64,000 bases of DNA from Burkholderiales bacterium (GTDB taxonomy: Bacteria > Pseudomonadota > Gammaproteobacteria > Burkholderiales > Burkholderiaceae_C). Under the pieces are notes generated by a model that saw nothing but the letters and a program-made list of their open reading frames with translations, was not told where the DNA came from and searched no databases. A program made the position numbers and the translations under genes. Positions 26,653-39,911 of this stretch are shown piece after piece. The stretch's first letter is position 1. Each line of letters opens with the position of its first letter. The stretch spans positions 3,518 to 67,517 of the forward strand of contig CANCVB010000011.1 in NCBI GenBank assembly GCA_947381415.1, given 5' to 3'.

Positions 26653-27936
26653 ATGAACGCTGTCACCACCATCCCTGAACTCATGCGCACCTTGGGCCTG
26701 CAAGCGCGTTGCGCGGCAGCAGGCATGGCGCGTGCCACGGCGGCGCAAAAAAACCGGGCCCTGCGGGCGCTGGCGCGCTTGCTGCGCGAACACACGGCGG
26801 CTTTGCAAACCGACAACGCCAAAGACCTGAGCCGCGCCCAAGCCGCTGGTTTGGCCGCGCCTCTGGCGGACCGACTCAAGCTTTCGCCGCAAACCTTGGA
26901 AACCTGTGCGCTGGGTTGCGAGCAACTCGCTGCCATGCCCGACATCATTGGCAGCATCAGCGGCATGAGCCAGCAGCCCAGCGGCATCCGCGTGGGGCAA
27001 ATGCGCGTGCCCATTGGCGTGTTTGGCATGATTTACGAGAGCCGCCCCAACGTCACCATCGAAGCGGCGTCACTCGCCATCAAGAGTGGCAACGCCTGCA
27101 TCTTGCGCGGCGGCTCCGAGGCCATCGACTCCAACAAAGCCTTGGCAGCGCTGGTGCAGCAAGCCTTGGCAGAAGCCGGCCTGCCCACCGACGCGGTGCA
27201 ACTCGTGCCCACCACCGACCGTGCGGCCGTGGGTGAACTCATCACCATGCCCCAGTATGTGGACGTGGTCATTCCGCGCGGCGGCAAGGGCTTGATCGAG
27301 CGCATCAGCCAAGACGCCAAGGTGCCGGTCATCAAGCATTTGGACGGCAACTGCCACACCTATGTGGACGACCCCTGTGACCTCGACATGGCGTTGAAAG
27401 TCGTTGACAACGCCAAGACACAGAAATACAGCCCTTGCAACGCGACAGAAAGTTTGTTGGTGGCCCGTGGTGTGGCGGCGGCGTTTTTGCCGCGCATCGG
27501 CCAGGTGTTGGCCGACAAAGGTGTGGAGATGCGTTGCTGCCCTGAAAGCAAAACCTTGTTGCAAGCTGTCAAGGGCGCGGTGCTCAAAGACGCCACCGAG
27601 CAAGATTGGTTCGAGGAGTATTTGGCGCCCATCATCAGCATCAAGCTGGTGGACGGCTTGGACGCGGCCATTGCCCACATCAACCACTACAGCAGCCACC
27701 ACACCGACGCCATATTGACGCTGAACCATGTGCACAGCCAGCGCTTCATGCGCGAGGTGGACTCGGCCAGCGTCATCGTCAACGCCAGCACCCGCTTTGC
27801 CGATGGTTTCGAGTACGGCTTGGGCGCCGAGATTGGCATTTCCACCGACAAATTCCACGCGCGTGGACCCGTGGGCATCGAGGGGCTCACCTCGCTGAAG
27901 TATGTGGTGTTGGGGGCGGGGGAAGTGCGGGGGTGA
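26653..27936 (+). CDS. proA: Gamma-glutamyl phosphate reductase
   Basis: [34 protein letters not shown] motifs. Confidence 0.97.
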
Positions 27937-27992
27937 GATGCAGTGCATCCATCTCTCACAACACGCTTAGGGCCAAGCCAGGCGTGTGACGA

Positions 27993-28916
27993 TCAGTTAG
28001 ATTGAAAGCGATTCAGCAAGGGCTGAAGCAAAGCTTGTCCAAACACATTCAACAGTAAACCCAGCATCAGCAGCGCGCCACCGGCCCAGTGCAGTGGCCC
28101 CAGGGATTCACCAAAAACCCACCATCCAGTGCTCAGGCCCACCACTGGAACCAGCAGGGTAAATGGCGCCACACGGTTGATTGGATACAGGCTCATCAAA
28201 TACGTCCACAGGCCATAGCCCAAAAGCGTTGCCATCCACGCCAAGTAGGCCACTGCTGCCAGTGTGGTTGAAGACAAATGCGTCAGCGATTGCACGATGG
28301 CCTCAGGCCCATCCAACCACACAGACAAAGCGATGAATGGCAGAGGCGGCACCAGGCTGGCCCAAACCACAAAAGCCAGTTGGTTCATGGGACCATAACG
28401 GCTCACAACCCGCGTGACAATGTTGCCGCAAGCCCATGACAGTGCAGCCAATAGCGTGAGTCCAAAGCCCAGCAGCGGCACGCTGAGCCCGTTCGCCAAT
28501 GAACTGTGCGCCATGCCGATCAGCACCAGACCCAATAAGGCCAGCAACAGTCCTGCCATTTGGTGCCCGTGCCAGCGCTCTTTGAGCCACCAACTGGCCA
28601 GCAAGAGTGTGAAAAACGACTGCGATTGCAGCACCAGCGACGCCAGTCCTGAAGGCATGCCCTCATGGATGGCACTGAACAAAAATGCAAATTGACCGAC
28701 CGAAATCGTCAGGCCGTAAGCAAGGTACCAGCGCAGTGGCACCCCGGGCGGTTTGACAAACAGCAAGGCCGGAAACGCCGCCAACATGAAACGCAAAGCC
28801 CCCAGCAGCATGGGCGGCACACCGACAACGCCAACCTTGATGACGGCAAAGTTCACGCCCCAGACACCGATGACCAGCAAGGCCAAGGCCAGGTCTTTGG
28901 GGCGCAGTTGGCGCAT
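27993..28916 (-). CDS. EamA/DMT transporter (O-acetylserine/cysteine exporter-like)
   Basis: WGVNFAVIK, GMPSGLASLVLQSQ, two EamA repeats. Confidence 0.9.
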   Translation of the reverse strand: MRQLRPKDLALALLVIGVWGVNFAVIKVGVVGVPPMLLGALRFMLAAFPALLFVKPPGVPLRWYLAYGLTISVGQFAFLFSAIHEGMPSGLASLVLQSQSFFTLLLASWWLKERWHGHQMAGLLLALLGLVLIGMAHSSLANGLSVPLLGFGLTLLAALSWACGNIVTRVVSRYGPMNQLAFVVWASLVPPLPFIALSVWLDGPEAIVQSLTHLSSTTLAAVAYLAWMATLLGYGLWTYLMSLYPINRVAPFTLLVPVVGLSTGWWVFGESLGPLHWAGGALLMLGLLLNVFGQALLQPLLNRFQSN

Positions 28917-28934
28917 GCGGTTTGGGCTTTCGTT

Positions 28935-29498
28935 TCAGAGGCTGGACAAACAGGCGTCCACGCTCACGATGCGCGCAAAGCGATCGGCCAAAACCAGCTC
29001 GGTGCGTGTGGTGATCTCTTGCGCACTGAAGGTCTGGCCCGTGCCCTTGTGGGTCATGGGAAAGGTCAGCGTGGCCTCAGACACAAAGTCCACCGCATAG
29101 CCCAGATCCGAACCCACACGTGCCGTGGTTTCGCAGCATTGCTCGGTGCGCATGCCGCTGATGATGAGGTGCTGCACCCCTTGACGGCGCAGCCACACAT
29201 CAAGGCCGGTGTCGGTGAAGGCGTTGTGTACATGCTTGTCAAAGCGCACCGCAGGCTCACCCGGCAGCCAGTCCATGGGTTTGACCAGTCCAGAGTCGAG
29301 CAAAAAGGGCCCCGCCAGTCCTACATGGTAGATGTGCACCACAGGCACATTGGCGGCCCTGCACCCAGCGTCCAGTCGCAGCAGTGCTTGCTGGAAGGGG
29401 GCGATGTCGCCGAGTTTCCAAAACGGCATGTGCATGAAGGACTGCTGAACATCGATGACCAGCAAGGCAGATTGTCGGGGGGTGGTTGGATGGGTCAT
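28935..29498 (-). CDS. Isochorismatase/cysteine hydrolase family protein
   Basis: LLVIDVQ, KHVHNAF, GMRTEQCCETTAR motifs. Confidence 0.9.
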   Translation of the reverse strand: MTHPTTPRQSALLVIDVQQSFMHMPFWKLGDIAPFQQALLRLDAGCRAANVPVVHIYHVGLAGPFLLDSGLVKPMDWLPGEPAVRFDKHVHNAFTDTGLDVWLRRQGVQHLIISGMRTEQCCETTARVGSDLGYAVDFVSEATLTFPMTHKGTGQTFSAQEITTRTELVLADRFARIVSVDACLSSL

Positions 29499-29674
29499 GG
29501 GGCGCTTTCAATGGAGTGGGCCATCATGCCATGCGGCGGGTCAGGTCGGGCGGTGCACAGGTGTAGGCAAGACCAAAAATATACCAAAAAGAACAACATG
29601 GAAATGTTGTGATTGATATTTTTGCAGTACTTTAGAATTTATGTGACCACCACTATAACTTCAGGAGACTCACC

Positions 29675-30301
29675 ATGTTCCCCCTTGAAATTTGGCTGAC
29701 TTACAGCGCGGCTTGTTTGTTATTGGTGTTGTCTCCCGGCCCGGACAACCTCTTGGCCATGGGGCGCGGTCTCAGTCAAGGTAAACCTGCGGCCGTCGTA
29801 TCAGGCCTGTCTTCGGGGGCTGGCATTCTTTTTCATGTGGGCGCAGCGACCTTTGGCTTGACCTTGCTGATGCAAACTTCTTCTTTGGCGTTCTGGGTGG
29901 TCAAACTGACCGGCGCGGCTTATTTGCTTTGGTTGGGCGTCAAGGTTTTACGCTCGCGCAACTTGATCAGTTTTGCGCCTGCGGCCCAACAACCTTTGTC
30001 CCGCATTTTTGCGACGGGTTTTTTGTCGGCAGCGCTCAATCCCAAACCGGGCTTGTTTGTCTTGGCCTTCATTCCGCAGTTTGTCAGCCCTGAGCGCGGC
30101 TCGGTCACCATGCAGATGTTGGTGTACGGCGTGTGGTTCGCGTTTCTAACGGCACTGAGTTTTGCCTTGATGGGTGTGTTTGCCTCACGCCTGTCCTCAT
30201 GGCTGCGTCAACGGCCCCGGGTGGTTGCGGGGCTCAACATCGGCGCCGGTGTGACCTTTGTGGCTTCGGGCTTGTCGGTGGCAGTGCTCAGGCAAAAGTG
30301 A
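29675..30301 (+). CDS. LysE/RhtB family translocator
   Basis: SPGPDN, NPK motifs; six hydrophobic segments. Confidence 0.9.
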   Translation: MFPLEIWLTYSAACLLLVLSPGPDNLLAMGRGLSQGKPAAVVSGLSSGAGILFHVGAATFGLTLLMQTSSLAFWVVKLTGAAYLLWLGVKVLRSRNLISFAPAAQQPLSRIFATGFLSAALNPKPGLFVLAFIPQFVSPERGSVTMQMLVYGVWFAFLTALSFALMGVFASRLSSWLRQRPRVVAGLNIGAGVTFVASGLSVAVLRQK

Positions 30302-30325
30302 AATAGGCGTGTTCCGTCATTGCTC

Positions 30326-30343
30326 CTGACACCCCGTTGTCAG
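30326..30343. promoter_or_regulatory. Palindromic operator CTGACA-N6-TGTCAG upstream of the VOC/HTH-WYL operon
   Basis: Perfect inverted repeat about 65 nt upstream of the VOC start codon; a partial copy sits at 31530-31546. Confidence 0.55.
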
Positions 30344-30407
30344 TACCCCTCAGGCACAGTCCTTTCCGGAGCGCAGACGGTCTGCGCTGATGCCAAGAAA
30401 GGACAAT

Positions 30408-30785
30408 ATGAAACAAGTGATCGATTGGTTTGAGATTCCCGTGCGCGATATATCGCGGGCCCAGGCGTTTTATGAGGCGGTTTTGCAAACCTCTTTACAC
30501 CGAGAAAATTTTGTGGGCCCCAACATGGAAATGGTGGTGTTTAAAGAAGATGGTCATCGCGCCAAAGGTGCTTTGCTGTCTGGTCACCCAGCATTGCAAC
30601 CGGGCACCAGCGGCACCTTGGTGTATCTGTATGCAGGTGCATCGTTGGATGCTGCTTTAAAGCGTGTCGTGGCTGCGGGCGGGCAAGTCGCCATGGGTCA
30701 GGTGGCATTGCCAGAAGGGGCGGGATTCATGGCACACATGGTGGATGTGGACGGCAACCGGGTGGGCTTGCATGCTTACGCCTGA
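30408..30785 (+). CDS. VOC/glyoxalase family protein
   Basis: WFEIPVRDISRAQAFY...DVDGNRVGL motifs; ATG after AAAGGA. Confidence 0.9.
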   Translation: MKQVIDWFEIPVRDISRAQAFYEAVLQTSLHRENFVGPNMEMVVFKEDGHRAKGALLSGHPALQPGTSGTLVYLYAGASLDAALKRVVAAGGQVAMGQVALPEGAGFMAHMVDVDGNRVGLHAYA

Positions 30786-30828
30786 AGACCCTAGACTGGT
30801 GCCCATTTTTTAAAACACGCACCTCGCC

Positions 30829-31533
30829 ATGCGCCGCGCAGACCGTTTGTTTCAGATTGTCCAACTCATCCGAGGTCGCCGCCTGACCACGGCCCAGTGG
30901 CTGGCGCAGCGGCTAGAGGTATCCGAGCGCACGGTGTACCGCGATGTGGCTGACTTGCAATACCAAGGTGTGCCGATTGAAGGGGCGGTAGGAGTGGGCT
31001 ACCGTTTGGGTCAAGGTTTTGAGTTGCCGCCACTGATCTTCACCCCACAAGAGGCGCAGGCCTTGGTGGTGATGACGCGGGTGGCGCAGCAGTGGTTGGA
31101 CCCGGCCTTGGCGCGTGCCAGCGAATCGGCCTTGTCGCGGGTGTTGAGCGTCATGCCTGCAGACCAGCGTCATGCGGCGCAACACACGCCGGTGTATTCG
31201 CCGCCCTGGGGTTTGACACCGGCGCAACAACCGCACTTGCAGCTGTGGCGCGAGGCCACACAAGCCAGTGACAAGCTGGCACTGGTCTACAGCGATGCCC
31301 AAAGTCGCACCAGAGAACGCACGGTATGGCCCTTGGGCAGCTTCTTTTGGGGCACGGTCTGGACGCTGGTGGCTTGGTGCGAAAAGCGCCAAGACTTTCG
31401 CAGCTTTCGACTGGACCGCATCCAGTCCATGCGTGCGCTGGGTCAGCACTTCAAGCTGGTCGATGGGCAGCGCCTCATCGACTATTTGCGCCTGCAAGGC
31501 GTGGACCCGCAGGCCTTGGCCGACGGTCGCTGA
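30829..31533 (+). CDS. HTH-WYL domain transcriptional regulator (YafY-like)
   Basis: N-terminal HTH (LEVSERTVYRD); WYL-type WTLVAWCEKRQDFRSFRLDRI. Confidence 0.92.
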   Translation: MRRADRLFQIVQLIRGRRLTTAQWLAQRLEVSERTVYRDVADLQYQGVPIEGAVGVGYRLGQGFELPPLIFTPQEAQALVVMTRVAQQWLDPALARASESALSRVLSVMPADQRHAAQHTPVYSPPWGLTPAQQPHLQLWREATQASDKLALVYSDAQSRTRERTVWPLGSFFWGTVWTLVAWCEKRQDFRSFRLDRIQSMRALGQHFKLVDGQRLIDYLRLQGVDPQALADGR

Positions 31534-31542
31534 CAGGACCTG

Positions 31543-31803
31543 TTGATGAAACCCATTGAGATTCAAACAAAAAAGGTGCTGGGCCTGTTGGTACGCACCT
31601 GCAATGCAGATGAAATGCAGGCCAGTACCGCACGCTTTGGCCCATTGTGGAAAGACTTTGCAGCGACAGTCGCTCCAAGCCTGCCTCTAACAGCCCAGGT
31701 GTTGGGTGTTTATTACCGCTATGCATCAGATGCCCACGGCGCTTTTGAACGCAACGGCCCCGAAGGGAAGATCGAGATATTCATCGCCGTGGTGCAGCCA
31801 TGA
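31543..31803 (+). pseudogene. GyrI-like effector-binding protein with apparent internal in-frame deletion
   Basis: N-terminal GLLVRTCNADE and C-terminal FER..IEIFIAV fit the family, but the ORF is only 86 aa. Confidence 0.55.
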
Positions 31804-32237
31804 ATCACTGGATCGGCGTGGTCAGCCGCTCGCATGTGCTTCGCGGGGTTGCGGGTGGTTTTGCGCAGATGAACCACGGCAAGCAAGCGCCGCTCCAGCG
31901 CATGAAGGCCGGGGATGGGTTGATTTATTACTCACCGCGGGAGGACTATCCCGATGGTGCACCCTTGCAAGCCTTCACCGCTTTGGGGTTCATCCGCACG
32001 GGTGAGGTTTACGCATACGACATGACGGCAGATGGTGTGCCGGGGTTTGTGCCCTGGCGCATCGATGTGGATTTCGTTCCAGCGCAATCGGTGCCCATCA
32101 AGCCCCTGATTGCGCAGTTGGAGTTCATCAAAGACAAAACCCACTGGGGTGCGGCTTTCCGGTTTGGGCAGGTCCGAATTGGCGAAGTGGACTTTCGGTG
32201 CATTGCGCACGCGATGGGATGCATATTGCGGGGATGA
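31800..32237 (+). CDS. EVE domain protein
   Basis: WIGVVSRSHV..G..GF.Q.NHGK, GDGLIYYSP, WGAAFRFG motifs. Confidence 0.85.
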   Translation: MNHWIGVVSRSHVLRGVAGGFAQMNHGKQAPLQRMKAGDGLIYYSPREDYPDGAPLQAFTALGFIRTGEVYAYDMTADGVPGFVPWRIDVDFVPAQSVPIKPLIAQLEFIKDKTHWGAAFRFGQVRIGEVDFRCIAHAMGCILRG

Positions 32238-32238
32238 A

Positions 32239-32358
32239 TTAAAGGCCGTCGTCCTTTGATGCAGCCTTGCTTTTTTCTTTGGCTTCAAAGTAAGACGCAG
32301 CCAAAGACATGGCGCACATCAATATGGTGAAGCCAATCACGATATAGACGATATTCAT
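32239..32358 (-). CDS. Small single-pass membrane protein, 39 aa (MNIVYIVIGFTILMCAMSLAASYFEAKEKSKAASKDDGL)
   Basis: Translated by hand; AAGGGA RBS 7 nt upstream; hydrophobic N-terminus and charged tail; below the ORF-track size cutoff. Confidence 0.5.
   Translation of the reverse strand: MNIVYIVIGFTILMCAMSLAASYFEAKEKSKAASKDDGL
32276..32310. repeat. 35-bp direct repeat, copy 1 (TCTTTGGCTTCAAAGTAAGACGCAGCCAAAGACAT)
   Basis: Identical to 38491-38525; contains an internal inverted repeat. Confidence 0.9.
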
Positions 32359-32391
32359 GCGCTGTTCCCTTGTGAATTGAGAAACTCAGCT

Positions 32392-32554
32392 TCATCGTCA
32401 ACGCCAGAACCGATTTGCCGATGGTTTTGAGTACGGCCTGGGTGCCGAGATTGGCATTTCCACCGACAAATTCCACGCCCGTGGACCCGTGGGTATTGAG
32501 GGGCTCACCTCGCTGAAATATGTGGTGTTGGGGGCGGGGGAAGTCAGGGGTTGA
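32392..32554 (+). pseudogene. proA: Second, diverged copy of the proA 3' end
   Basis: Hand alignment to 27773-27936: 12 substitutions and one 1-nt deletion (about 92% identity), ending in TGA. Confidence 0.93.
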
Positions 32555-32557
32555 CGG

Positions 32558-33178
32558 CTAAATCCAAGTGGTTGGTCTGGTTAAGACATACCCATCTGGC
32601 CTAGTCACTTCATCTGGTAATTGCGACTGTCTGAGATGTGCTTCGCCGATGGTAAAAAAACCGTTGGATGCCTTTGACAACTCGTTGGATTTGCGCCCAG
32701 GTGGAAAAGCAACGATCAAGCGCTTAGAAGGAAATTGCCGTCGCAGCGTGGTGACAGGTGTGGTGAGGTCGCTGTCACCTGAAATCAAGATGGCGGTATC
32801 AAAAAGATCTTCGTAGGCATCGGTCAACAGTTGAACCGCCATGTTGACGTCGGTCATTTTTTCTTCATAACTCAACCATTGGGCACCACAGGCATGGCAT
32901 TGCCGAGGTTTTTCCAAGAAATGTCCCCAATGAATATCAAGACCAGATAGGCAAGCCAATGCCTCAAGGTAGGTCGTTTGTCTTTGAATATCGGTTTGGT
33001 TGTTGTTCGTGGAGCGAATGCGTGACGTGAAGTAATGAACTTTGCGCAACTGTTGATCGTGCTTGAGCAGTGCACTTGCCAAAGCCACTAAATTAAGCCA
33101 ATAGAGTTTGCGCCAGCCTTTGCTTTTCATGCCAAAGTAAAGGTTAAAGCCGTCCACATAAGCCACAACGCGTTGCAT
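32558..33178 (-). CDS. NYN (LabA/DUF88, PIN-like) domain RNase
   Basis: YVDGFNLY, EEKMTDVNMA, ISGDSDL acidic motifs and a CHACG insertion; alternative start at 33217. Confidence 0.9.
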   Translation of the reverse strand: MQRVVAYVDGFNLYFGMKSKGWRKLYWLNLVALASALLKHDQQLRKVHYFTSRIRSTNNNQTDIQRQTTYLEALACLSGLDIHWGHFLEKPRQCHACGAQWLSYEEKMTDVNMAVQLLTDAYEDLFDTAILISGDSDLTTPVTTLRRQFPSKRLIVAFPPGRKSNELSKASNGFFTIGEAHLRQSQLPDEVTRPDGYVLTRPTTWI

Positions 33179-33222
33179 GTGAAAACCAATTTCGGTTTTA
33201 AGGGTAAATGGGGACATCGACT

Positions 33223-33251
33223 TTGCACATTTGTCAGGTTTTCCTTATAAA
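33223..33251 (+). promoter_or_regulatory. Sigma70-type promoter divergent from the NYN gene
   Basis: TTGCAC-N17-TATAAA. Confidence 0.6.
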
Positions 33252-33256
33252 ATTCC

Positions 33257-33324
33257 CTCTGTTAACCCCCCCGGAGATCGCATCTCCGGACCGACGCCTC
33301 CCATGTGGAGGCGTTTCTTTTTTT
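33257..33324 (+). ncRNA. Candidate ~68-nt small RNA (two hairpins, the second an intrinsic terminator)
   Basis: Promoter upstream; stems CCGGAGAT/ATCTCCGG and ACGCCTCC/GGAGGCGT followed by TTCTTTTTTT; no ORF. Confidence 0.5.
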
Positions 33325-33493
33325 AAAGACTAAAAAACTAACCCATTTCAGGCTTGCTCTACAAGAGCCCCAAAGGATACATAAAAAATACAAATACAAA
33401 TGTATTTTTAATTTATTTTTACTAATTCAGGGTTCAGCACAAATTCACCCATCGTTGCGACGGGTGTCGCGTTGAGCGCTTCGCTGCAATCTA

Positions 33494-34122
33494 AATGAAG
33501 TAACCGCACAAATACATGGCGGCTGGAGCTCATACGACTGCGGCCACTACCGAAGCGTGGTTCTAGTAACCGCACAAATACATGGCGGCTGGAGCGAAGC
33601 CGATACAGAGGGGTGTTTGTTGCTGTTCTAGTAACCGCACAAATACATGGCGGCTGGAGCGAAGCAAATACAAACAGCCATGGATATTAGTTCTAGTAAC
33701 CGCACAAATACATGGCGGCTGGAGCGATGTAGAGCATTCGGATATTGGTTTCCGTGTTCTAGTAACCGCACAAATACATGGCGGCTGGAGCTGCCATAGG
33801 GTTCTTTCAAATAGTTGAGATGTTCTAGTAACCGCACAAATACATGGCGGCTGGAGCCAAAACCCACCAAGGCAAGGGGTGTGGACAGTTCTAGTAACCG
33901 CACAAATACATGGCGGCTGGAGCCGCCCTCTTGCTCTGTGCACTGGCCGCTGTGTTCTAGTAACCGCACAAATACATGGCGGCTGGAGCTTGATGCAATC
34001 ACTTGATCGTATGTTTCGCTGTTCTAGTAACCGCACAAATACATGGCGGCTGGAGCAAGAACTGTCATAGGTACAGCATTTTTAACGTTCTAGTAACCGC
34101 ACAAATACATGGCGGCTGGAGC
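33494..34122 (-). CRISPR. CRISPR array: 10 repeats of 36 nt (GCTCCAGCCGCCATGTATTTGTGCGGTTACTAGAAC on the minus strand) and 9 spacers of 29-31 nt
   Basis: Nine identical repeats start at 33560, 33625, 33690, 33756, 33822, 33888, 33954, 34021 and 34087, plus an end-degenerate repeat at 33494; spacers are unique; strand inferred. Confidence 0.98.
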
Positions 34123-34131
34123 CGACCCGCT

Positions 34132-35733
34132 TCAAACCTTTGATTGCAAAGGATTTTCTTCAGTTTGGCCATTCGAAAAAAAGGCTTGGTGCAGGTCATG
34201 GTGAGCCTGGGCATGGTGGTTTTTGCACAAAATCTGTACCGCATCAAGTGTGGTGCGCCGCTCTCCTTCGCTGATGGGTCGGGTGTGGTGCACATCCAGC
34301 AAATGCACGGCGGTCACACCGCAGTCTGCGTGCATGCATTGGGGGCCGTGGTGCTTCAAAGCGGCTGCGCGCAGTTGCGCGTTGCGCTCGCGCTGCAAAT
34401 GGGTTTGCAAGACTTCAGCACCCTCTACAAAACCGTCCCAGTCCACATGGAAGCGCTCAGGAATGGCGGGGCGCAAAGCCATGCGAGCGCTTCGGGGGTC
34501 TAGCAGCAGCAGGGTGCATTGGGCGTCGGGGGTGCGCAGCCCTCGGTGCAAGCCTTGGTGGGTGCGGCGCAGCGCCACCACTTGGCTGTCGATGAAGTGG
34601 TTGAGGGCTTGCCCATTCACTGCCATGGGCTGGCCATAAGGCGTTTGCGGGATGACCACGGTTTGCCAGCGCAAGCGGGGTTCGTCCAAGCCCGACCACG
34701 CACCCGCCGCGATCAGTACCCCGCCATCAGGGCAGCGTTGCACAGCATCAGCCAAGGGCTCTTGCGGCATGCGGACCACCGCGTCGGGCAACAACGCACC
34801 CAGTTGGGCGCTCATATGGTGGCTATTGGTCAGCACCAAGCAGGGTTTGGCGGCATGGGCGATGCGCTGCGCCATGGCGTCGTGCGTCAAGGTGTCGGTG
34901 GCCACCTCCACCTTCAGGCTGCCATGCTGTGCGGGGTCGAGGTGGCGGCTTTCGGGGGCGATGGCTTGCAGGCCAAGGCAGCGCACGAAATGGTCAAAAC
35001 GGCCATTGACTTGCAGCGTACCGCTGGTGAAAACACAGCGCGGCACATCGCGCACCAAGGGCTTGAGCATGCGCCCCGGCATGCGGTGCTTGAGCAGCAA
35101 AGCGCCGTCGTCGTCATGACCCACCACTTTGTAGGCCGCAGGGTGGGCCAAGGCATACAAGATGGCACTGGCGGCGCAACGGTCTTCGGCTTGGCTGGCG
35201 TGTTGCAGCACCTTTTGCGCGGCGATCGCCGGTGCCAACGAAGCAGCACCGCAGTCGGCAAGGGTGGCGGCGCTGATGTGGAAGGTGCTGCGCAGATCGG
35301 CGGCATCGGCCAGCAAATCGGCCTCGTCAAACAGCACCACATCACGTTGGCGCAGTTGGGCGTAGCCTGGCTGCAAGCTGTCAATCAAAGCCGCTGCATG
35401 GGTCAGCACCAGCACTTGCGCTTGCATGGCTTGGGTGCGGTGCGTTTGGTAGTCCTGTTCGCTGGCAAAACTGTGGCGGGTTTGCAAAGCCACCACGCTG
35501 ATGGGGTGCGATTCACAGGCCGAGTGAAGTGCAGCGCTTTGCAGGTATTGCTGCATCAATTGTCGCGTGCTCATGGCAATGGCGATGCGTTTGCCCGAGC
35601 GCACCAAGGGAATGCTGTAACCATGGGTTTTGCCCAAACCTGCTGCGGCGCCTGCCAACAAGGGTGGACCAGGGCGCAGCGCGGTCTCGATCAGCTTGGC
35701 ATAGCGCTGTTGCTCAGGGCTGCGAAAACTCAT
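34132..35733 (-). CDS. dinG: DinG-family helicase (Csf4) with C-terminal HNH nuclease, 533 aa
   Basis: AAAGLGKT, DEAD, FTSGTL, GAWSGLD, QGLHRGLR, LLDPR; C-terminal C-x4-C...VHH.RP...LCKNHHAQAH; ATGA overlap with csf2. Confidence 0.9.
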   Translation of the reverse strand: MSFRSPEQQRYAKLIETALRPGPPLLAGAAAGLGKTHGYSIPLVRSGKRIAIAMSTRQLMQQYLQSAALHSACESHPISVVALQTRHSFASEQDYQTHRTQAMQAQVLVLTHAAALIDSLQPGYAQLRQRDVVLFDEADLLADAADLRSTFHISAATLADCGAASLAPAIAAQKVLQHASQAEDRCAASAILYALAHPAAYKVVGHDDDGALLLKHRMPGRMLKPLVRDVPRCVFTSGTLQVNGRFDHFVRCLGLQAIAPESRHLDPAQHGSLKVEVATDTLTHDAMAQRIAHAAKPCLVLTNSHHMSAQLGALLPDAVVRMPQEPLADAVQRCPDGGVLIAAGAWSGLDEPRLRWQTVVIPQTPYGQPMAVNGQALNHFIDSQVVALRRTHQGLHRGLRTPDAQCTLLLLDPRSARMALRPAIPERFHVDWDGFVEGAEVLQTHLQRERNAQLRAAALKHHGPQCMHADCGVTAVHLLDVHHTRPISEGERRTTLDAVQILCKNHHAQAHHDLHQAFFSNGQTEENPLQSKV

Positions 35734-36725
35734 GCCGATGCATGCGCTGGTTCTGCTGCTTGAACAAAGGTCTGACCTTGCGGCGTCCATGCACATTGAG
35801 CCGCTTGCAGACCACCAAAGTCCAGCACCAACAACACCTCGCCATCGGCAGTGCTGAAGCGCACTTGCCCCTTGATCTCGCCGCAACCCCTGGCTTGTTG
35901 CGCACCGATGAACGGTTTTCGGCTCAGGCCGTCAAAGGCGGTGACCAAGGTTTGCAGGTCGAAGGCTTGGGCATGCATCATGGTGAGCTTGCCGCTGAGG
36001 GTGATGCCAGCGGGAATCACTTGCAATTCCAGCAAGTGCTTGGAGTTGTCAGATGTGTCGCCGCCCTTTTGTGTTTTTTTAAGCGCTTTGAGTTCTTCAA
36101 CTTTGGCTGTCAAGGCGTCTATTTTTTCTTGGTCTTTCAGCTTGCGGGCGGCACTCAGTTCGCGCATGCTGAGTTTGATCAAGCCCTCGGCTTTGGAGGC
36201 CAAACCTTGCTTGCCTTGACGCTCATAAAAGCGGTCTTGTTCTGTGTCGTCGAGCAAGCCCATCATGTCTTGGTTGGTGTCCAAGTCGTGTCGAATGTGG
36301 CTGATGTTGTCGGGCAAGACATTGACCGACGGCAAAAGGTGCGAGACATAAAGACGGCTGGCCACCTTCCAGGTGCCAAACAAATCGAGAAACGGGTTTT
36401 GCTGTCGAAATGCGATTTGCTCTTTCAGTTTGATGGCTTCGGGTTCGTCGTCTTCGCTAGGGCGCAGATCTTGTCCCAGTGCCAACAAATATGCATCCTC
36501 CAGCTTGGCTTTGTGGGGGCGCCCGCGCAGTTCGGCGAAAGCAGCTTCGTGGCGCAAGCGGCCCCGCAGTTGCGCGGCGGGGATGTAGACGCTGCGCTGG
36601 TGGCGGCCTTCGGCATCGATGCCACGGGTCAGCAGGGGCAGGCCATCTGTGCCGTGGTGGGTGAAGGTCAGGGGTTGCACGGTGTGCAGGTCGATGGTGG
36701 CAACCAAGGTAAGGCTAGAGGTCAT
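35730..36725 (-). CDS. csf2: Type IV CRISPR backbone subunit Csf2 (Cas7-like), 331 aa
   Basis: VYIPAAQLRGRLRH, NPFLDLFG, Gly-rich IGAQQARGCG; position in the cas operon. Confidence 0.85.
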   Translation of the reverse strand: MTSSLTLVATIDLHTVQPLTFTHHGTDGLPLLTRGIDAEGRHQRSVYIPAAQLRGRLRHEAAFAELRGRPHKAKLEDAYLLALGQDLRPSEDDEPEAIKLKEQIAFRQQNPFLDLFGTWKVASRLYVSHLLPSVNVLPDNISHIRHDLDTNQDMMGLLDDTEQDRFYERQGKQGLASKAEGLIKLSMRELSAARKLKDQEKIDALTAKVEELKALKKTQKGGDTSDNSKHLLELQVIPAGITLSGKLTMMHAQAFDLQTLVTAFDGLSRKPFIGAQQARGCGEIKGQVRFSTADGEVLLVLDFGGLQAAQCAWTPQGQTFVQAAEPAHASA

Positions 36726-36742
36726 GGTGTGGTCTTTCGGGG

Positions 36743-37225
36743 TTATTGAACGATCAAGAGGTTCAGGCCAAAGGCTTTGCCCACCTTGCCAATGCCTTTG
36801 CTCAGGCACAGGGCAAACGCTGCGGGCTCGTTCACTTTCAAAAGGCCGGTGAATTCAGTGGCGTCTAACTTGAAGCGTCTGCCGTCATGGGTTTGCACTT
36901 CTTGCATGCCGGGTGTGATGTGCACGCCGACAATTTCAAAGCCGTGCTTCATGCCTTGTTTGTCCAGCCAAGCCCTGCGACCACGCCAATCAGCCAAAGG
37001 CAGGTATTTGTGTTTGTGGCCGCTACTGAACGACACGCAAGCGGTGGTGGTGAACGCCAACAATTTGCCACTGTCGTAGTGGGGCGGTGTGGCCTCTTCG
37101 GGGCGGATGCGCAGTTGTTGCCCCTCATCGGCCCACAAAGCGGGTTTGCCGTTTCGGTATTGCTCAACAATGCGGTGCAAGGCATAGCCACGCACACGCG
37201 GGGGTTTGTCTATCAAGATGTCCAT
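36743..37225 (-). CDS. cas6: Compact Cas6e-like crRNA-processing RAMP, 160 aa
   Basis: WLDKQGMKHGF, FTGLLKV, GIGKVGKAFG C-terminal Gly loop; ATG after GGAGAA. Confidence 0.8.
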   Translation of the reverse strand: MDILIDKPPRVRGYALHRIVEQYRNGKPALWADEGQQLRIRPEEATPPHYDSGKLLAFTTTACVSFSSGHKHKYLPLADWRGRRAWLDKQGMKHGFEIVGVHITPGMQEVQTHDGRRFKLDATEFTGLLKVNEPAAFALCLSKGIGKVGKAFGLNLLIVQ

Positions 37226-37626
37226 GTTTTCTCCTGGGTGGCGTCGTAGGTGTGGACTTTGCCTTCGCTGCACAAGCGAGCTGCGCGTGGGTCATAGGTG
37301 ACAAACAGGTCCCGAGCGGTCATGTTTCGCTTGCCCAGAGCAAGCAAGATGCATGGATCGCCAGACTGAAGGGCTTCTTTGATGGCGGTTTTGCGCTCCA
37401 TGTCTTGGCGAAAACCAAGCGCAGGTAAGAACTTGAAGTTGGTGGCCACCCATTGCGGTGTGACCACCATCCAACAAGTTTGAATGCGTCTTTGTTTTTT
37501 GCTCTTCTGGATAGTTAGCGACAGACGCAATAGCGTGTCTGCGTCGGTCACAGCATCTTGGGTCTGTTGGTCAGTTGGCAGCAGGCGGTAACCGACATGG
37601 CGCATGAAAAAATCGGGTCCGTTCAT
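37213..37626 (-). CDS. Putative reduced Csf1 (Cas8-like) subunit, 137 aa
   Basis: Coupled between csf3 and cas6; weak Csf1-like segments (CWMVVT, DPCILLALGK); identity is mostly positional. Confidence 0.45.
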   Translation of the reverse strand: MNGPDFFMRHVGYRLLPTDQQTQDAVTDADTLLRLSLTIQKSKKQRRIQTCWMVVTPQWVATNFKFLPALGFRQDMERKTAIKEALQSGDPCILLALGKRNMTARDLFVTYDPRAARLCSEGKVHTYDATQEKTWTS

Positions 37627-37629
37627 GGC

Positions 37630-38250
37630 TCATACCTGTGGCGCAAAACATCGGGTGCGGTTGCGCACATCCCAATAGGGGGCTTTCCAAGCGGCTTCGA
37701 CAGCAACCCAATCGCCGCCTTGTGTCCAGCGCTCAGTGGGCACAGGACGCAAGGGGTCGTCTGCATAGCCCACCACGCCATCCAGTTCGCCAACCTCTGC
37801 ATCCCAGCGAACCACTTCGCCATAGCCTGCGGTTCTGCGCTTACCAATGAAAGGGATGGAGCGCACCACCTCCAACACAGCTTTCATGTCGCCCGTGGCA
37901 TACCACTCGATGGCGTTGGCAACAGTCGCGGTGTAGGCGTTGATGATGTTGCCGGCTTCACGCTGCCTGCCCAAGCCAATTTTCAGGTCACCGTCTTTGG
38001 TGTTGGACTGCAACAGCGCCAACCAATGGGGCGAGTGTTCTGGCCGCATGCTGGCCACAAACGACGCTCGTTGCGTGGCGTGGGCTTCTACCGCAAAGCC
38101 CGAACTGGCAAAGTACAAATCGTTTTCGCAATGCAGCAGGTGGGACACATCACCACAGGCCAAGCTCGACATGAGCAGCGCATCCAAGGTGACGTGACCG
38201 CGCCGAATCACGGGGGTGCGCAAGTGTGCGCGAAGGACAAAAGGATTCAA
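37630..38250 (-). CDS. csf3: Type IV CRISPR Csf3 (Cas5-like), 206 aa
   Basis: TLDALL, EWYATGD, IGKRRTAGYGEV, RPVP, APYW motifs; TTG start after AGGAAG. Confidence 0.85.
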   Translation of the reverse strand: MNPFVLRAHLRTPVIRRGHVTLDALLMSSLACGDVSHLLHCENDLYFASSGFAVEAHATQRASFVASMRPEHSPHWLALLQSNTKDGDLKIGLGRQREAGNIINAYTATVANAIEWYATGDMKAVLEVVRSIPFIGKRRTAGYGEVVRWDAEVGELDGVVGYADDPLRPVPTERWTQGGDWVAVEAAWKAPYWDVRNRTRCFAPQV

Positions 38251-38318
38251 GCATGCTTCCTTTGAAGTTCATGGGCGGTTCAGCCGATGTGTTGAAATGA
38301 GTGGAACTTATAGAAGTA

Positions 38319-38347
38319 ATATTAAGCGAAATACCGATAAATATGAA
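38319..38347 (-). promoter_or_regulatory. Candidate promoter of the cas operon
   Basis: TTCATA-N17-TAATAT on the minus strand within an AT-rich stretch. Confidence 0.35.
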
Positions 38348-38429
38348 ATCTTTAATACGAATTAATGTGTGTTTCCAACCCAAGATCTTTGGGCAGGAAG
38401 GGATGGTCGTGTGAAACGCATGAGCCATG

Positions 38430-38456
38430 AAAAAAGCCAGACGATGGTCTGGCTTT
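38430..38456 (-). terminator. Intrinsic terminator upstream of the cas promoter region
   Basis: 10-bp stem AAAGCCAGAC/GTCTGGCTTT followed by a U-run on the minus strand. Confidence 0.65.
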
Positions 38457-38486
38457 GTCGTTGAGGTTGGGAGGGAATTACAGATC

Positions 38487-38526
38487 GATGTCTTTGGCTT
38501 CAAAGTAAGACGCAGCCAAAGACATC
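38487..38526. repeat. 35-bp direct repeat, copy 2 (38491-38525), inside a perfect 13-bp inverted repeat
   Basis: GATGTCTTTGGCT-N14-AGCCAAAGACATC; core identical to 32276-32310. Confidence 0.9.
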
Positions 38527-38615
38527 ACCATCCAGATAACCAAGCTTTCATCCCCCTCATGCTTGAAGCTGTCAGAATCGGCCCCACATCCAAAATTCAA
38601 ACAGACAAGCGACCC

Positions 38616-39911
38616 ATGGTTCCTCACCTCATCACAGCGCTCACCGGCCCCATCAACGAGCTCGAGCAACGCATCCTCGACTCCATGCCCGCCATCGAGC
38701 GCTGGTTTCGCATGGAATGGATGGAGCACACCCCCCCTTTTTACAGCTCGGTGGACATCCGCAACGCCGGTTTCAAGCTCGCGCCAGTCGACACCAACCT
38801 CTACCCTGGTGGCTGGAACAACCTCACACCCGAGATGCTGCCCTTGGCGGTGCAAGCGGCGATGGCCGCGATTGAGAAAATTTGCCCCGAGGCGCGCAAC
38901 CTGCTTCTCATCCCCGAGAACCACACGCGCAACACCTTCTACCTGAGCAATGTGGCGCAGTTGGCGCGCATCTTCAACATGGCGGGCCTGAATGTGCGCA
39001 TTGGCTCGATCAACCCCGAGATCAAAGAAGACACGGTGATTGACTTACCCAATGGTGAATCCGTGAAATTGGAGCCCGTGATTCGCAGCAAAACCCGCTT
39101 GGGGCTCAAAGACTTCGACCCTTGCACCATCTTGCTTAACAACGATTTGAGCGCAGGCATTCCTGGCATCTTGGAAGATTTGCACGAGCAATACCTGCTG
39201 CCGCCCTTGCACGCGGGGTGGTGTGTGCGGCGCAAAAGCCAGCATTTCGCCAACTATGAAGAGGTGTCTAAGCGTTTTGGCAAGTTGCTCGGCATCGACC
39301 CTTGGTTGATCAACCCCATGTTCAGCCACTGTGGCGAGGTCAATTTCGCAGAAGGCACCGGCATGGAGTGTCTGACCACCAATGTCGATATGTTGTTGAC
39401 CAAAATCCGGCGCAAGTACAAGGAATTTGGCATCCATGAAAAGCCCTTTGTCATTGTCAAGGCGGACAACGGCACCTATGGCATGGGCATCATGACCGTG
39501 CGCAGCGTGGCCGATCTGGAGGCGCTCAACCGCAAAACCCGTAACAAAATGAGCGTGGTCAAAGACGGTCAAGAGGTCAACCAGGTCATCATCCAAGAAG
39601 GGGTGCTGACCAACGAGCGTATCAACGACGCGGTGGCCGAGCCGGTGGTGTACATGATGGACCGCTATGTGGTGGGTGGCTTTTACCGCGTGCATGCCGA
39701 GCGCGGCGTGGACGAAAACCTGAATGCCCCAGGATCGAGCTTTGTGCCCTTGGCCTTTGAGCAAAGTGCACACACGCCCCAGCCAGGTGCCAAGGCCGGT
39801 GTCAGTTTGCCCAACCGTTTTTACATGTATGGCGTGATTGCCCGTTTGGCCATGTTGGCTGCAAGCTACGAAATCGAGCAAACCGACCCCAATGCCGAGG
39901 TATACGAATAA
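38616..39911 (+). CDS. gshA: Glutamate--cysteine ligase (betaproteobacterial type)
   Basis: MVPHL..AL, PPFYSSVDIRNAGFKLAPVDTNLYPGG, KADNGTYGMG motifs. Confidence 0.92.
   Translation: MVPHLITALTGPINELEQRILDSMPAIERWFRMEWMEHTPPFYSSVDIRNAGFKLAPVDTNLYPGGWNNLTPEMLPLAVQAAMAAIEKICPEARNLLLIPENHTRNTFYLSNVAQLARIFNMAGLNVRIGSINPEIKEDTVIDLPNGESVKLEPVIRSKTRLGLKDFDPCTILLNNDLSAGIPGILEDLHEQYLLPPLHAGWCVRRKSQHFANYEEVSKRFGKLLGIDPWLINPMFSHCGEVNFAEGTGMECLTTNVDMLLTKIRRKYKEFGIHEKPFVIVKADNGTYGMGIMTVRSVADLEALNRKTRNKMSVVKDGQEVNQVIIQEGVLTNERINDAVAEPVVYMMDRYVVGGFYRVHAERGVDENLNAPGSSFVPLAFEQSAHTPQPGAKAGVSLPNRFYMYGVIARLAMLAASYEIEQTDPNAEVYE

Follow-up and report, generated by a model that had tools for sequence, protein, structure and literature searches.

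The closest described relative of the locus reported here is the DinG-HNH CRISPR (short palindromic repeats that are clustered and regularly interspaced) system of Sulfitobacter sp. JL08, which was tested by Altae-Tran et al. (2023, Science). Its processed CRISPR RNAs (crRNAs) carry 30-nt spacers, its protospacer-adjacent motif (PAM) is 5' YCN, cleavage of dsDNA by its DinG-HNH protein is ATP-dependent, directional, and ladder-like, and PAM-dependent interference required all five proteins, the Walker B residues (D139/E140), and the HNH residues H497, D514, and H523 (Altae-Tran et al. 2023). The system is classified as variant IV-A2 (Makarova et al. 2025, PMC12669027), with the order cas5, cas8, cas6, cas7, casDinG-HNH, and array, and a chromosomal homolog is reported in Nordella (2025 review, PMC11981726). 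Here we describe a locus in a 64,000-nt stretch of contig CANCVB010000011.1 from a Burkholderiales bacterium (the whole stretch is referred to below as the window), and we assign it, with a probability of roughly 80 per cent based on sequence comparison, to chromosomal CRISPR-Cas variant IV-A2, i.e. type IV-A with a CasDinG-HNH helicase-nuclease, whose mechanism would follow that of the Sulfitobacter homolog. As such, the locus is a new, divergent member of a variant that has already been described, tested, and classified, and not a new system.

The cas operon comprises five tightly packed minus-strand genes in the order csf3/cas5, 137-aa gene, cas6, csf2/cas7, and dinG-HNH, with intergenic spacing of -13 to +17 nt and a coding total of approximately 4.1 kb. 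The CRISPR array begins 9 nt past the dinG stop codon. The features are as follows:

37630..38250, minus strand: csf3/cas5, 206 aa, TTG start; matches PADLOC Csf3_0_IV over its full length (1.4e-27)
37213..37626, minus strand: 137-aa putative small subunit, homolog of the Sulfitobacter 'M protein (Csf1/Cas8)'
36743..37225, minus strand: cas6 (Cas6e-like), approximately 160 aa from the likely ATG at 37225; the open reading frame (ORF) reaches a GTG at 37273
35730..36725, minus strand: csf2/cas7, approximately 331 aa from the likely ATG at 36725; the ORF reaches 36809
34132..35733, minus strand: casDinG-HNH, 533 aa (ORF 34132-35886); matches PADLOC Csf4_2_IVA1 (2e-40)
33494..34122, minus strand: CRISPR array of ten 36-nt repeats (minus strand GCTCCAGCCGCCATGTATTTGTGCGGTTACTAGAAC) and nine spacers of 29-31 nt
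33446..33466, minus strand: terminator-like hairpin just past the last repeat, from a consensus scan only

Gene content and relation to the tested system

The type IV backbone of csf2 (Cas7), csf3 (Cas5), and Cas6 is recognized in the translated sequence by PADLOC type IV models. Specifically, in addition to the csf3/cas5 match listed above, the cas6 product matches Cas6_5_IV (5e-23) and the Pfam family CRISPR_assoc (1.2e-13), and the csf2/cas7 product matches Csf2_0_IV (3.4e-32) and Pfam RAMPs (6e-5); the NCBIfam models for csf2 (cas7_csf2), csf3 (cas5_csf3), and csf4 give weak matches. The chosen start codons agree with those of relatives, whose Cas6 is called at 160 aa (window ATG at 37225) and whose Csf2/Cas7 is 331-333 aa long (window ATG at 36725). 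The likely start of dinG is the ATG at 35733, which overlaps the csf2 stop codon in an ATGA and yields 533 aa. None of the five ORFs is interrupted, and their overlaps are conserved; the window Csf3/Cas5 is 58-69 per cent identical to its counterparts in eight related loci described below.

Each of the five proteins has a counterpart in the tested system, for which the protein sequences and the repeat were taken from the supplementary plasmid map of Altae-Tran et al. (2023):

Csf3: 33 per cent identity, E 1e-35
137-aa protein against the 160-aa "M protein (Csf1/Cas8)": 24 per cent identity, E 1e-5
Cas6: 32 per cent identity, E 3e-29
Csf2: 32 per cent identity, E 7e-39
DinG-HNH: 35 per cent identity, E 2e-94, over residues 3-513 with the HNH domain included

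The 137-aa protein matched no Pfam, NCBIfam, or PADLOC profile (its eight orthologs likewise matched none in PADLOC), and a Foldseek search of the PDB with its AlphaFold2 model, which is of moderate quality (predicted local distance difference test [pLDDT] 68), returned no fold match. We assign it to the small-subunit position because it keeps a constant operon slot, is conserved over its full length in the eight related loci (56-67 per cent identity), and shows weak homology to the Sulfitobacter M protein (hhalign probability 84 per cent, E 7e-6, 101 columns). The aligned region includes the motif F-x-T-[YF]-DPR.

The window DinG retains Walker A (G32-T36) and Walker B (D136/E137), and GLGKT and DEAD are invariant across the family alignment. 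Its AlphaFold2 model (mean pLDDT 78) matches in the PDB, above all, the CasDinG structures 8s35_M (IV-A3), 8e2w, and 7xf0 (IV-A1), followed by XPD and DinG. On sequence and profile evidence, an HNH nuclease domain is fused to the C-terminus of this helicase, at residues ~449-512 (nt 34198-34389). The Pfam HNH model applied to the single window sequence scores 15.8 bits, below the 21.4-bit cut-off. A profile of the C-terminal region built from 24 family members matches the HNH domain of EcoKMcrA (6ghc) with an E-value of 2e-5 and, more weakly, group II intron maturase, ZRANB3, a pyocin, and colicin HNH domains, and the model contains the beta-beta-alpha elements of the fold (E479-483, E499-503, and H504-523). 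The invariant HNH and zinc residues C466, H482, H483, C503, and H507 are all kept; the one position that differs is treated in the next section. The presence of this domain places the locus outside the nuclease-free IV-A1/IV-A3 class.

A search of approximately 5.8 billion proteins returned more than 120 DinG-HNH clusters at 42-90 per cent identity, nearly all approximately 530 aa long and mostly metagenomic. Genome contigs gave no match when searched with the single window protein and eight loci when searched with an alignment; all eight come from species-representative genomes of Burkholderiales (Polaromonas and unnamed lineages) and carry the same five genes in the same order, with the array directly behind dinG in seven. 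At the eighth (L006, 12204-12977), the array lies approximately 2.6 kb downstream of dinG-HNH, and the hairpin of its repeats varies from copy to copy with the pairing kept. In a FastTree phylogeny, the window protein pairs with P0001 (90 per cent identity) within a 60-row betaproteobacterial clade, which a long branch parts from the clade holding the Sulfitobacter protein and the representative sequence of the paper. The Burkholderiales clade of the window is thereby placed as a sister to the tested clade; it is large and apparently chromosomal. No DinG-HNH homolog was found by tblastn in 72,556 plasmids (PLSDB) or in GenBank phages, nor by a pattern search of IMG/VR, and none of the IV-A2 members that we fetched lies on a plasmid or phage. 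In members on long contigs, the cassette sits among housekeeping genes (e.g. radC/ispH and smr in L036). The system is rare: a sample of 120 other species from the genus of the window gave no carrier, and 400 other genomes sampled in the order gave one.

The array is also of the same design as that of the tested system. Nine of the ten repeats are identical, and the degenerate copy (33494-33529) is the one most distant from the cas genes. The repeat is predicted to form a stem-loop (positions 6-28) with a 5-nt tail before it and an 8-nt 3' tail behind it, a geometry common to the window, Sulfitobacter, and the relatives, whose stem sequences differ by lineage yet pair. The 66-nt repeat-spacer period recurs in the eight related loci, and the array of one of them (L002) likewise finishes in a hairpin followed by a T-run.

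Two further features were noticed in and beside the array. The 29-nt spacers S7 and S8 (window 33596-33689) have similar ends when read on the minus strand (TGTATTTGCTTC and TGTATCGGCTTC), which may reflect related protospacers or an offset repeat boundary at that point. Between the array and an adjoining NYN-domain gene, window 33224-33315 on the plus strand contains a promoter-like TGCACA-18-TAAAAT and, after it, a strong hairpin of terminator type (GACGCCTCC...GGAGGCGTT with a T-run). This interval could encode a short non-coding transcript; an Rfam scan of 31500-39000 gave no match.

Much of the preliminary description of the window, which was made from the sequence alone, is borne out by these results. 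The five minus-strand ORFs and the 10-repeat array lie where it had placed them, its designation of the system as type IV-A-like agrees with the PADLOC and NCBIfam profiles and with the Sulfitobacter homology, the superfamily 2 helicase motifs and the HNH motif that it quoted are present in the DinG translation, its McrA-type label for the HNH domain is matched by the best profile hit, and the precedent that it named (Altae-Tran et al. 2023) exists and is the relevant one. Among the searches that it had proposed, those with type IV profiles matched Cas5, Cas6, Cas7, and DinG; the 137-aa ORF had no profile or PDB match. Its suggestion that the combination of a 36-nt repeat, a reduced Csf1, and a chromosomal site may define a distinct lineage is not supported. 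The Sulfitobacter repeat is also 36 nt long, with the same predicted fold and a 30-nt spacer; a 160-aa 'M protein (Csf1/Cas8)' occupies the same place in the Sulfitobacter gene order; and, as described above, the family has no homolog in the plasmid collection and its long-contig members lie among housekeeping genes. The repeat length, the small Csf1-like protein, and the chromosomal site recur in every relative fetched and are therefore traits of the family rather than marks of a new lineage.

From these homologies, the following course of events can be proposed. A single transcript probably covers the operon and the array that directly follows it. To judge from the predicted fold, the Cas6 cut in each 36-nt repeat probably falls at the 3' base of the hairpin, and the resulting crRNA would consist of an 8-nt 5' handle (ACUAGAAC), a guide of approximately 30 nt, and a 3' hairpin. 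This crRNA would be bound by a complex of Csf2/Cas7, Csf3/Cas5, Cas6, and the 137-aa small subunit, which would recognize a protospacer flanked by a PAM and open an R-loop there. DinG-HNH would next engage the displaced strand, move 5'->3' with ATP, and cut the DNA with its HNH domain, as shown only for the Sulfitobacter homolog. In the window copy, the nuclease may be weakened or lost through Ala498, described in the next section, with the helicase and the rest of the HNH domain intact.

The HNH motif, spacers, and adaptation genes

Several observations weigh against the proposed reading of the window copy. Identity to that system is only 24-35 per cent, and the PAM, processivity, and cleavage pattern may differ. 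Within the HNH motif, one residue departs from the family:

34240..34242, minus strand: Ala498 (codon GCG), which occupies the middle ('N') position of H-N-H and is equivalent to Sulfitobacter D514

In a pairwise alignment, Sulfitobacter D513-D514 stand opposite window D497-A498, and an alignment with McrA shows that the D514 position is the middle 'N' of H-N-H. The published plasmid map marks 'D --> A' at codon 514, five residues ahead of the C-x-x-[CH]-H knuckle. By alignment, the published catalytic triad (H497, D514, and H523) is incomplete in the window protein, where H483 and H507 are kept and the D514 equivalent is Ala498. Among 111 homolog cluster representatives that have the motif, this position is Asp in 85, Glu in 25, His in one, and Ala in none, and the contigs of seven relatives, from seven metagenomes, have a T at the position corresponding to 34241, giving GAG (Glu). 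The preceding position (D497 in the window) is variable in the family. The missing triad residue touches activity, not homology; D514 is one of the three residues altered in the inactive construct, and Ala498 is a real caveat on cutting by the window copy. The preliminary description had proposed an RNA-guided DNA-cutting effector with only about 4.1 kb of coding sequence. That size is upheld, and cutting is plausible by homology, with a weaker case for the window copy on account of Ala498.

An assembly error at Ala498 is possible. If Ala498 came from a mistake in the assembly or consensus, or from a rare minority allele, the true residue would be Glu and the locus an ordinary, fully active IV-A2 system. 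The difference is a single base (GCG versus GAG), every other contig aligned to the site reads GAG, and constraint is not relaxed elsewhere in the protein. Public sequencing runs gave only relatives at 34241 and no read over the base of the window itself; the sole run that contains the window strain (X1) has a word depth of approximately 3.8x and does not reach the position. Nothing positive points to an error, though, and the surrounding sequence is clean and in frame, and we consider this explanation somewhat unlikely.

If the base call is correct, the locus could be an IV-A2 system with a naturally impaired HNH domain, which would act without cutting or with nicking only, e.g. by blocking transcription or replication through the R-loop and DinG translocation, as in IV-A1/IV-A3. 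The residue involved is Asp or Glu in 110 of the 111 homologs and Glu in the seven close metagenomic relatives, the same D-to-A change is annotated in the published dead-HNH construct, and nuclease-free IV-A systems are reported to silence their targets. The size of the effect on nuclease activity is uncertain. Altae-Tran et al. (2023) name the three HNH residues jointly, and D514A alone is not reported there as abolishing activity; HNH enzymes mutated at the middle Asn keep 7-83 per cent of activity in ColE7 and 50-80 per cent in GVE2, and lose it in EheA (PMC5304195). In addition, Asp497 is adjacent to Ala498, and the base call is itself unverified. We regard an impaired HNH domain as unlikely.

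The remaining points that weigh against the assignment concern the array and the genes that would supply it. The window array has no leader. No Cas1 (PF01867) was found in the 99.9 per cent-complete window genome, where the controls of this search responded in seven of 14 genomes and Cas2 was not searched for separately; no Cas3 scored above the cut-off, Cas10 not being searched for separately; and there is no second CRISPR array. Where the preliminary description reported no cas1, cas2, cas3, or cas10 in the window, its statement can thus be extended to the genome for Cas1 and, at the cut-off used, for Cas3. Judged on Cas1, the genome lacks a complete adaptive locus (cas1 plus cas2), and its nine spacers are therefore not renewable by any known machinery in the strain. 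Nor did the spacers reveal what they target. None of the nine matches elsewhere in the window genome, blastn against 50,697 phage records gave nothing credible (only 25-nt matches at E = 5), blastn against the 72,556 plasmids gave no match, and exact scans of IMG/VR with every sixth base free gave none for six spacers (S7-S9 excluded). With no protospacer found in the genome, phages, plasmids, or, for six spacers, IMG/VR, neither targets nor a PAM can be derived from the array.

Among the eight related genomes, Cas1 is present in six, always on a contig other than that of IV-A2, and absent from two. The two Cas1 loci that we inspected are accompanied by 37-nt repeats (...GGATTGAAAC) and 34-35-nt spacers, unlike the 36/30 geometry of IV-A2. 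Cas1-side arrays with 37-nt repeats (GGATCGCCCG.CAGTGATG.CGGGCGCGGATTGAAAC) were seen at L027 3016-3771 and L028 3109-3871, in the genomes of L002 and L006. The closest relative of the window locus (L035) has 85 per cent nucleotide identity, a repeat that differs at two nucleotides, and no spacer in common with the window. Because its spacer set is wholly different, arrays turn over in the lineage; the route of this turnover is not evident.

A more far-reaching proposal joins the two themes of this section. The window copy would be a natural HNH-attenuated IV-A2 effector, i.e. a helicase-driven silencer or nickase that has reverted towards the nuclease-free mode of IV-A, and the clade would have an unknown spacer-acquisition route. 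Such a route is hinted at because leaderless arrays with 30-nt spacers differ wholly between relatives, Cas1 is absent from three of nine genomes, and the two co-resident Cas1 loci inspected have 37-nt repeats and 34-35-nt spacers. We consider the proposal quite improbable.

Finally, it is very unlikely that the locus is a stranded, non-functional remnant that was imported by recombination, is incapable of spacer acquisition, and is heading for loss: the genome without Cas1, Cas3, or another array, the absence of the system from all 120 congeneric species sampled, the HNH-motif substitution, and the failure to find spacer matches would fit this view, but the five ORFs are intact with conserved overlaps, nine repeats are identical, and two of the eight related carriers also lack Cas1, which makes its absence not peculiar to the window copy. 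The window DinG-HNH differs from the family at four positions that are at least 95 per cent conserved, in each case conservatively (the family median is two such differences), and the gene is not decaying. The IV-A2 assignment is the reading that we retain, with the caveat on cutting that attaches to Ala498.

Genomic site of the cassette

In congeners, the gene order around the site is leuS-lptE-holA-proA-gshA, and the end of proA abuts or nears the upstream region of gshA in G024, G016, and G010 (with a gap of 51 nt in G024). In the window, 10.6 kb separate the two genes. Comparison with the empty site delimits the following features:

32555..38560, no strand: 6.0-kb cassette of the NYN gene, array, cas operon, and upstream region, absent from the empty proA|gshA site of congeners
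32387..32554, plus strand: second copy of the proA 3' end, 169 bp, at the left cassette junction; 91.7 per cent identical to the resident 27768-27936

The second proA copy has a 1-nt deletion, after which 11 of 11 differences are synonymous across 48 in-frame codons. Because all of these differences are synonymous, the copy derives from a functional foreign allele in another lineage. This points to import of the cassette together with the proA fragment from a related donor. The operon of L035 is likewise divergent from gshA, and the proA|gshA site is therefore shared within the lineage. The most economical reading, which we offer as an inference, is that the cassette reached proA|gshA by recombination with DNA of a related donor, with a homologous event towards gshA and an illegitimate one at the opposite end.

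Two copies of a perfect 35-bp direct repeat, the only ones in the genome, lie at 32276-32310 and 38491-38525 and enclose a stretch slightly longer than the cassette. The repeat holds an internal 9-bp palindrome. The left copy lies inside a small ORF (32237-32356, minus strand; 39 aa, membrane-like) that is intact and is also found beside gshA in G011 and G021, and the right copy has unrelated flanks and is missing from L035. We considered whether a self-mobile element left the repeat as its att site or as a target-site duplication, and found this not to be supported: the cassette has no integrase, and the boundary of the empty site falls at 32554/38561 and not at the repeat. The origin of the repeat is unexplained.

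The cassette also contains the NYN-domain gene mentioned above (32558-33217, minus strand), which adjoins the array and lies 3 nt away from where the foreign proA fragment ends. Its product has a full-length match to HEC-09, a candidate defence family in PADLOC (3.3e-94), and also matches Pfam NYN (2e-11). As a conserved accessory gene of the system it was rejected, since none of the eight related loci has a homolog within the fetched flanks; it has the look of a neighbour within a small defence islet. The same proA|gshA hotspot holds further variable cargo in a second block, at 27938-32386. Named from ORF translations alone, its genes are an EamA-like transporter, an isochorismatase-like gene, LysE, a glyoxalase, a WYL-type regulator, an EVE-like gene, and a small ORF. 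In G021, the part from the glyoxalase to the small ORF is found at the same site without CRISPR; G011 has the small ORF only, and G024 has nothing.

Comparison with known systems

The window locus leaves the knowledge of IV-A2 as a kind of system unchanged. Its value lies in the fact that, among type IV systems, DNA cutting has been shown for IV-A2 alone, and the sole tested representative of IV-A2 is alphaproteobacterial. The Burkholderiales sister clade is much larger, with more than 100 protein clusters found, and at approximately 4.1 kb of coding sequence per system it is a source of varied, compact systems whose PAMs and activities could be profiled. The naturally occurring Glu-to-Ala change at the middle HNH residue provides a ready-made test of the weight of that residue in a helicase-coupled HNH domain, and the clean empty site together with the imported proA fragment indicates that such a cassette moves between chromosomes without a recombinase of its own. 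Added interest comes from the uniqueness of the HNH-motif substitution and from a host genome in which no adaptation genes were found (Cas1 having been searched for, and Cas2 not separately).

Among individual proteins, EcoKMcrA (6ghc) is the best sequence-profile match to the HNH domain, and its LEVHH...DN..LC.NCH..H pairs with LDVHH...DA..LCKNHH..H of the window. The middle residue is Asn in McrA, whereas it is Asp or Glu in the DinG-HNH family and Ala in the window, and the window domain is not a stand-alone restriction enzyme. Variants I-E2 (Cas5-HNH) and I-F4 (Cas8-HNH) resemble the window locus in that an HNH domain was independently joined to a part of a class 1 effector and is the sole effector nuclease (Makarova et al. 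2025, PMC12669027). In those variants, however, the domain sits on a backbone subunit of Cascade, makes a precise cut near the target, and acts without a helicase, whereas the HNH domain of the window is carried by a translocating helicase.

IV-A1 and IV-A3, known from Pseudomonas oleovorans and from Klebsiella pneumoniae plasmids, share with the window locus the Csf2/Csf3/Cas6 backbone and a CasDinG-type helicase of the XPD family. Their DinG is reported to be approximately 600-700 aa long, to have an N-terminal domain, and to be nuclease-free, their Csf1 is larger, and the systems are mostly plasmid-borne and silence their targets instead of cutting them. In contrast, the window locus is chromosomal and its DinG is shorter and carries the HNH domain.

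The IV-A2 system of Sulfitobacter JL08 is the closest counterpart. The two share the five-gene order csf3, small M/Csf1-Cas8 protein, cas6, csf2, and dinG-HNH; a C-terminal HNH domain on DinG, which has CCCH/CCCC as zinc ligands and contains an HH...H motif; a 36-nt repeat made up of a 5-nt tail, hairpin, and 8-nt handle, with 30-nt spacers; and the lack of homologs among PLSDB plasmids. They differ in the length of DinG (557 aa in Sulfitobacter versus 533 aa in the window) and of the small subunit (160 versus 137 aa), in the zinc knuckle (C-R-I-C-H versus C-K-N-H-H), and in the D514 equivalent, which is Ala in the window, and the window locus belongs to a separate, large Burkholderiales clade that a long branch divides from Sulfitobacter.

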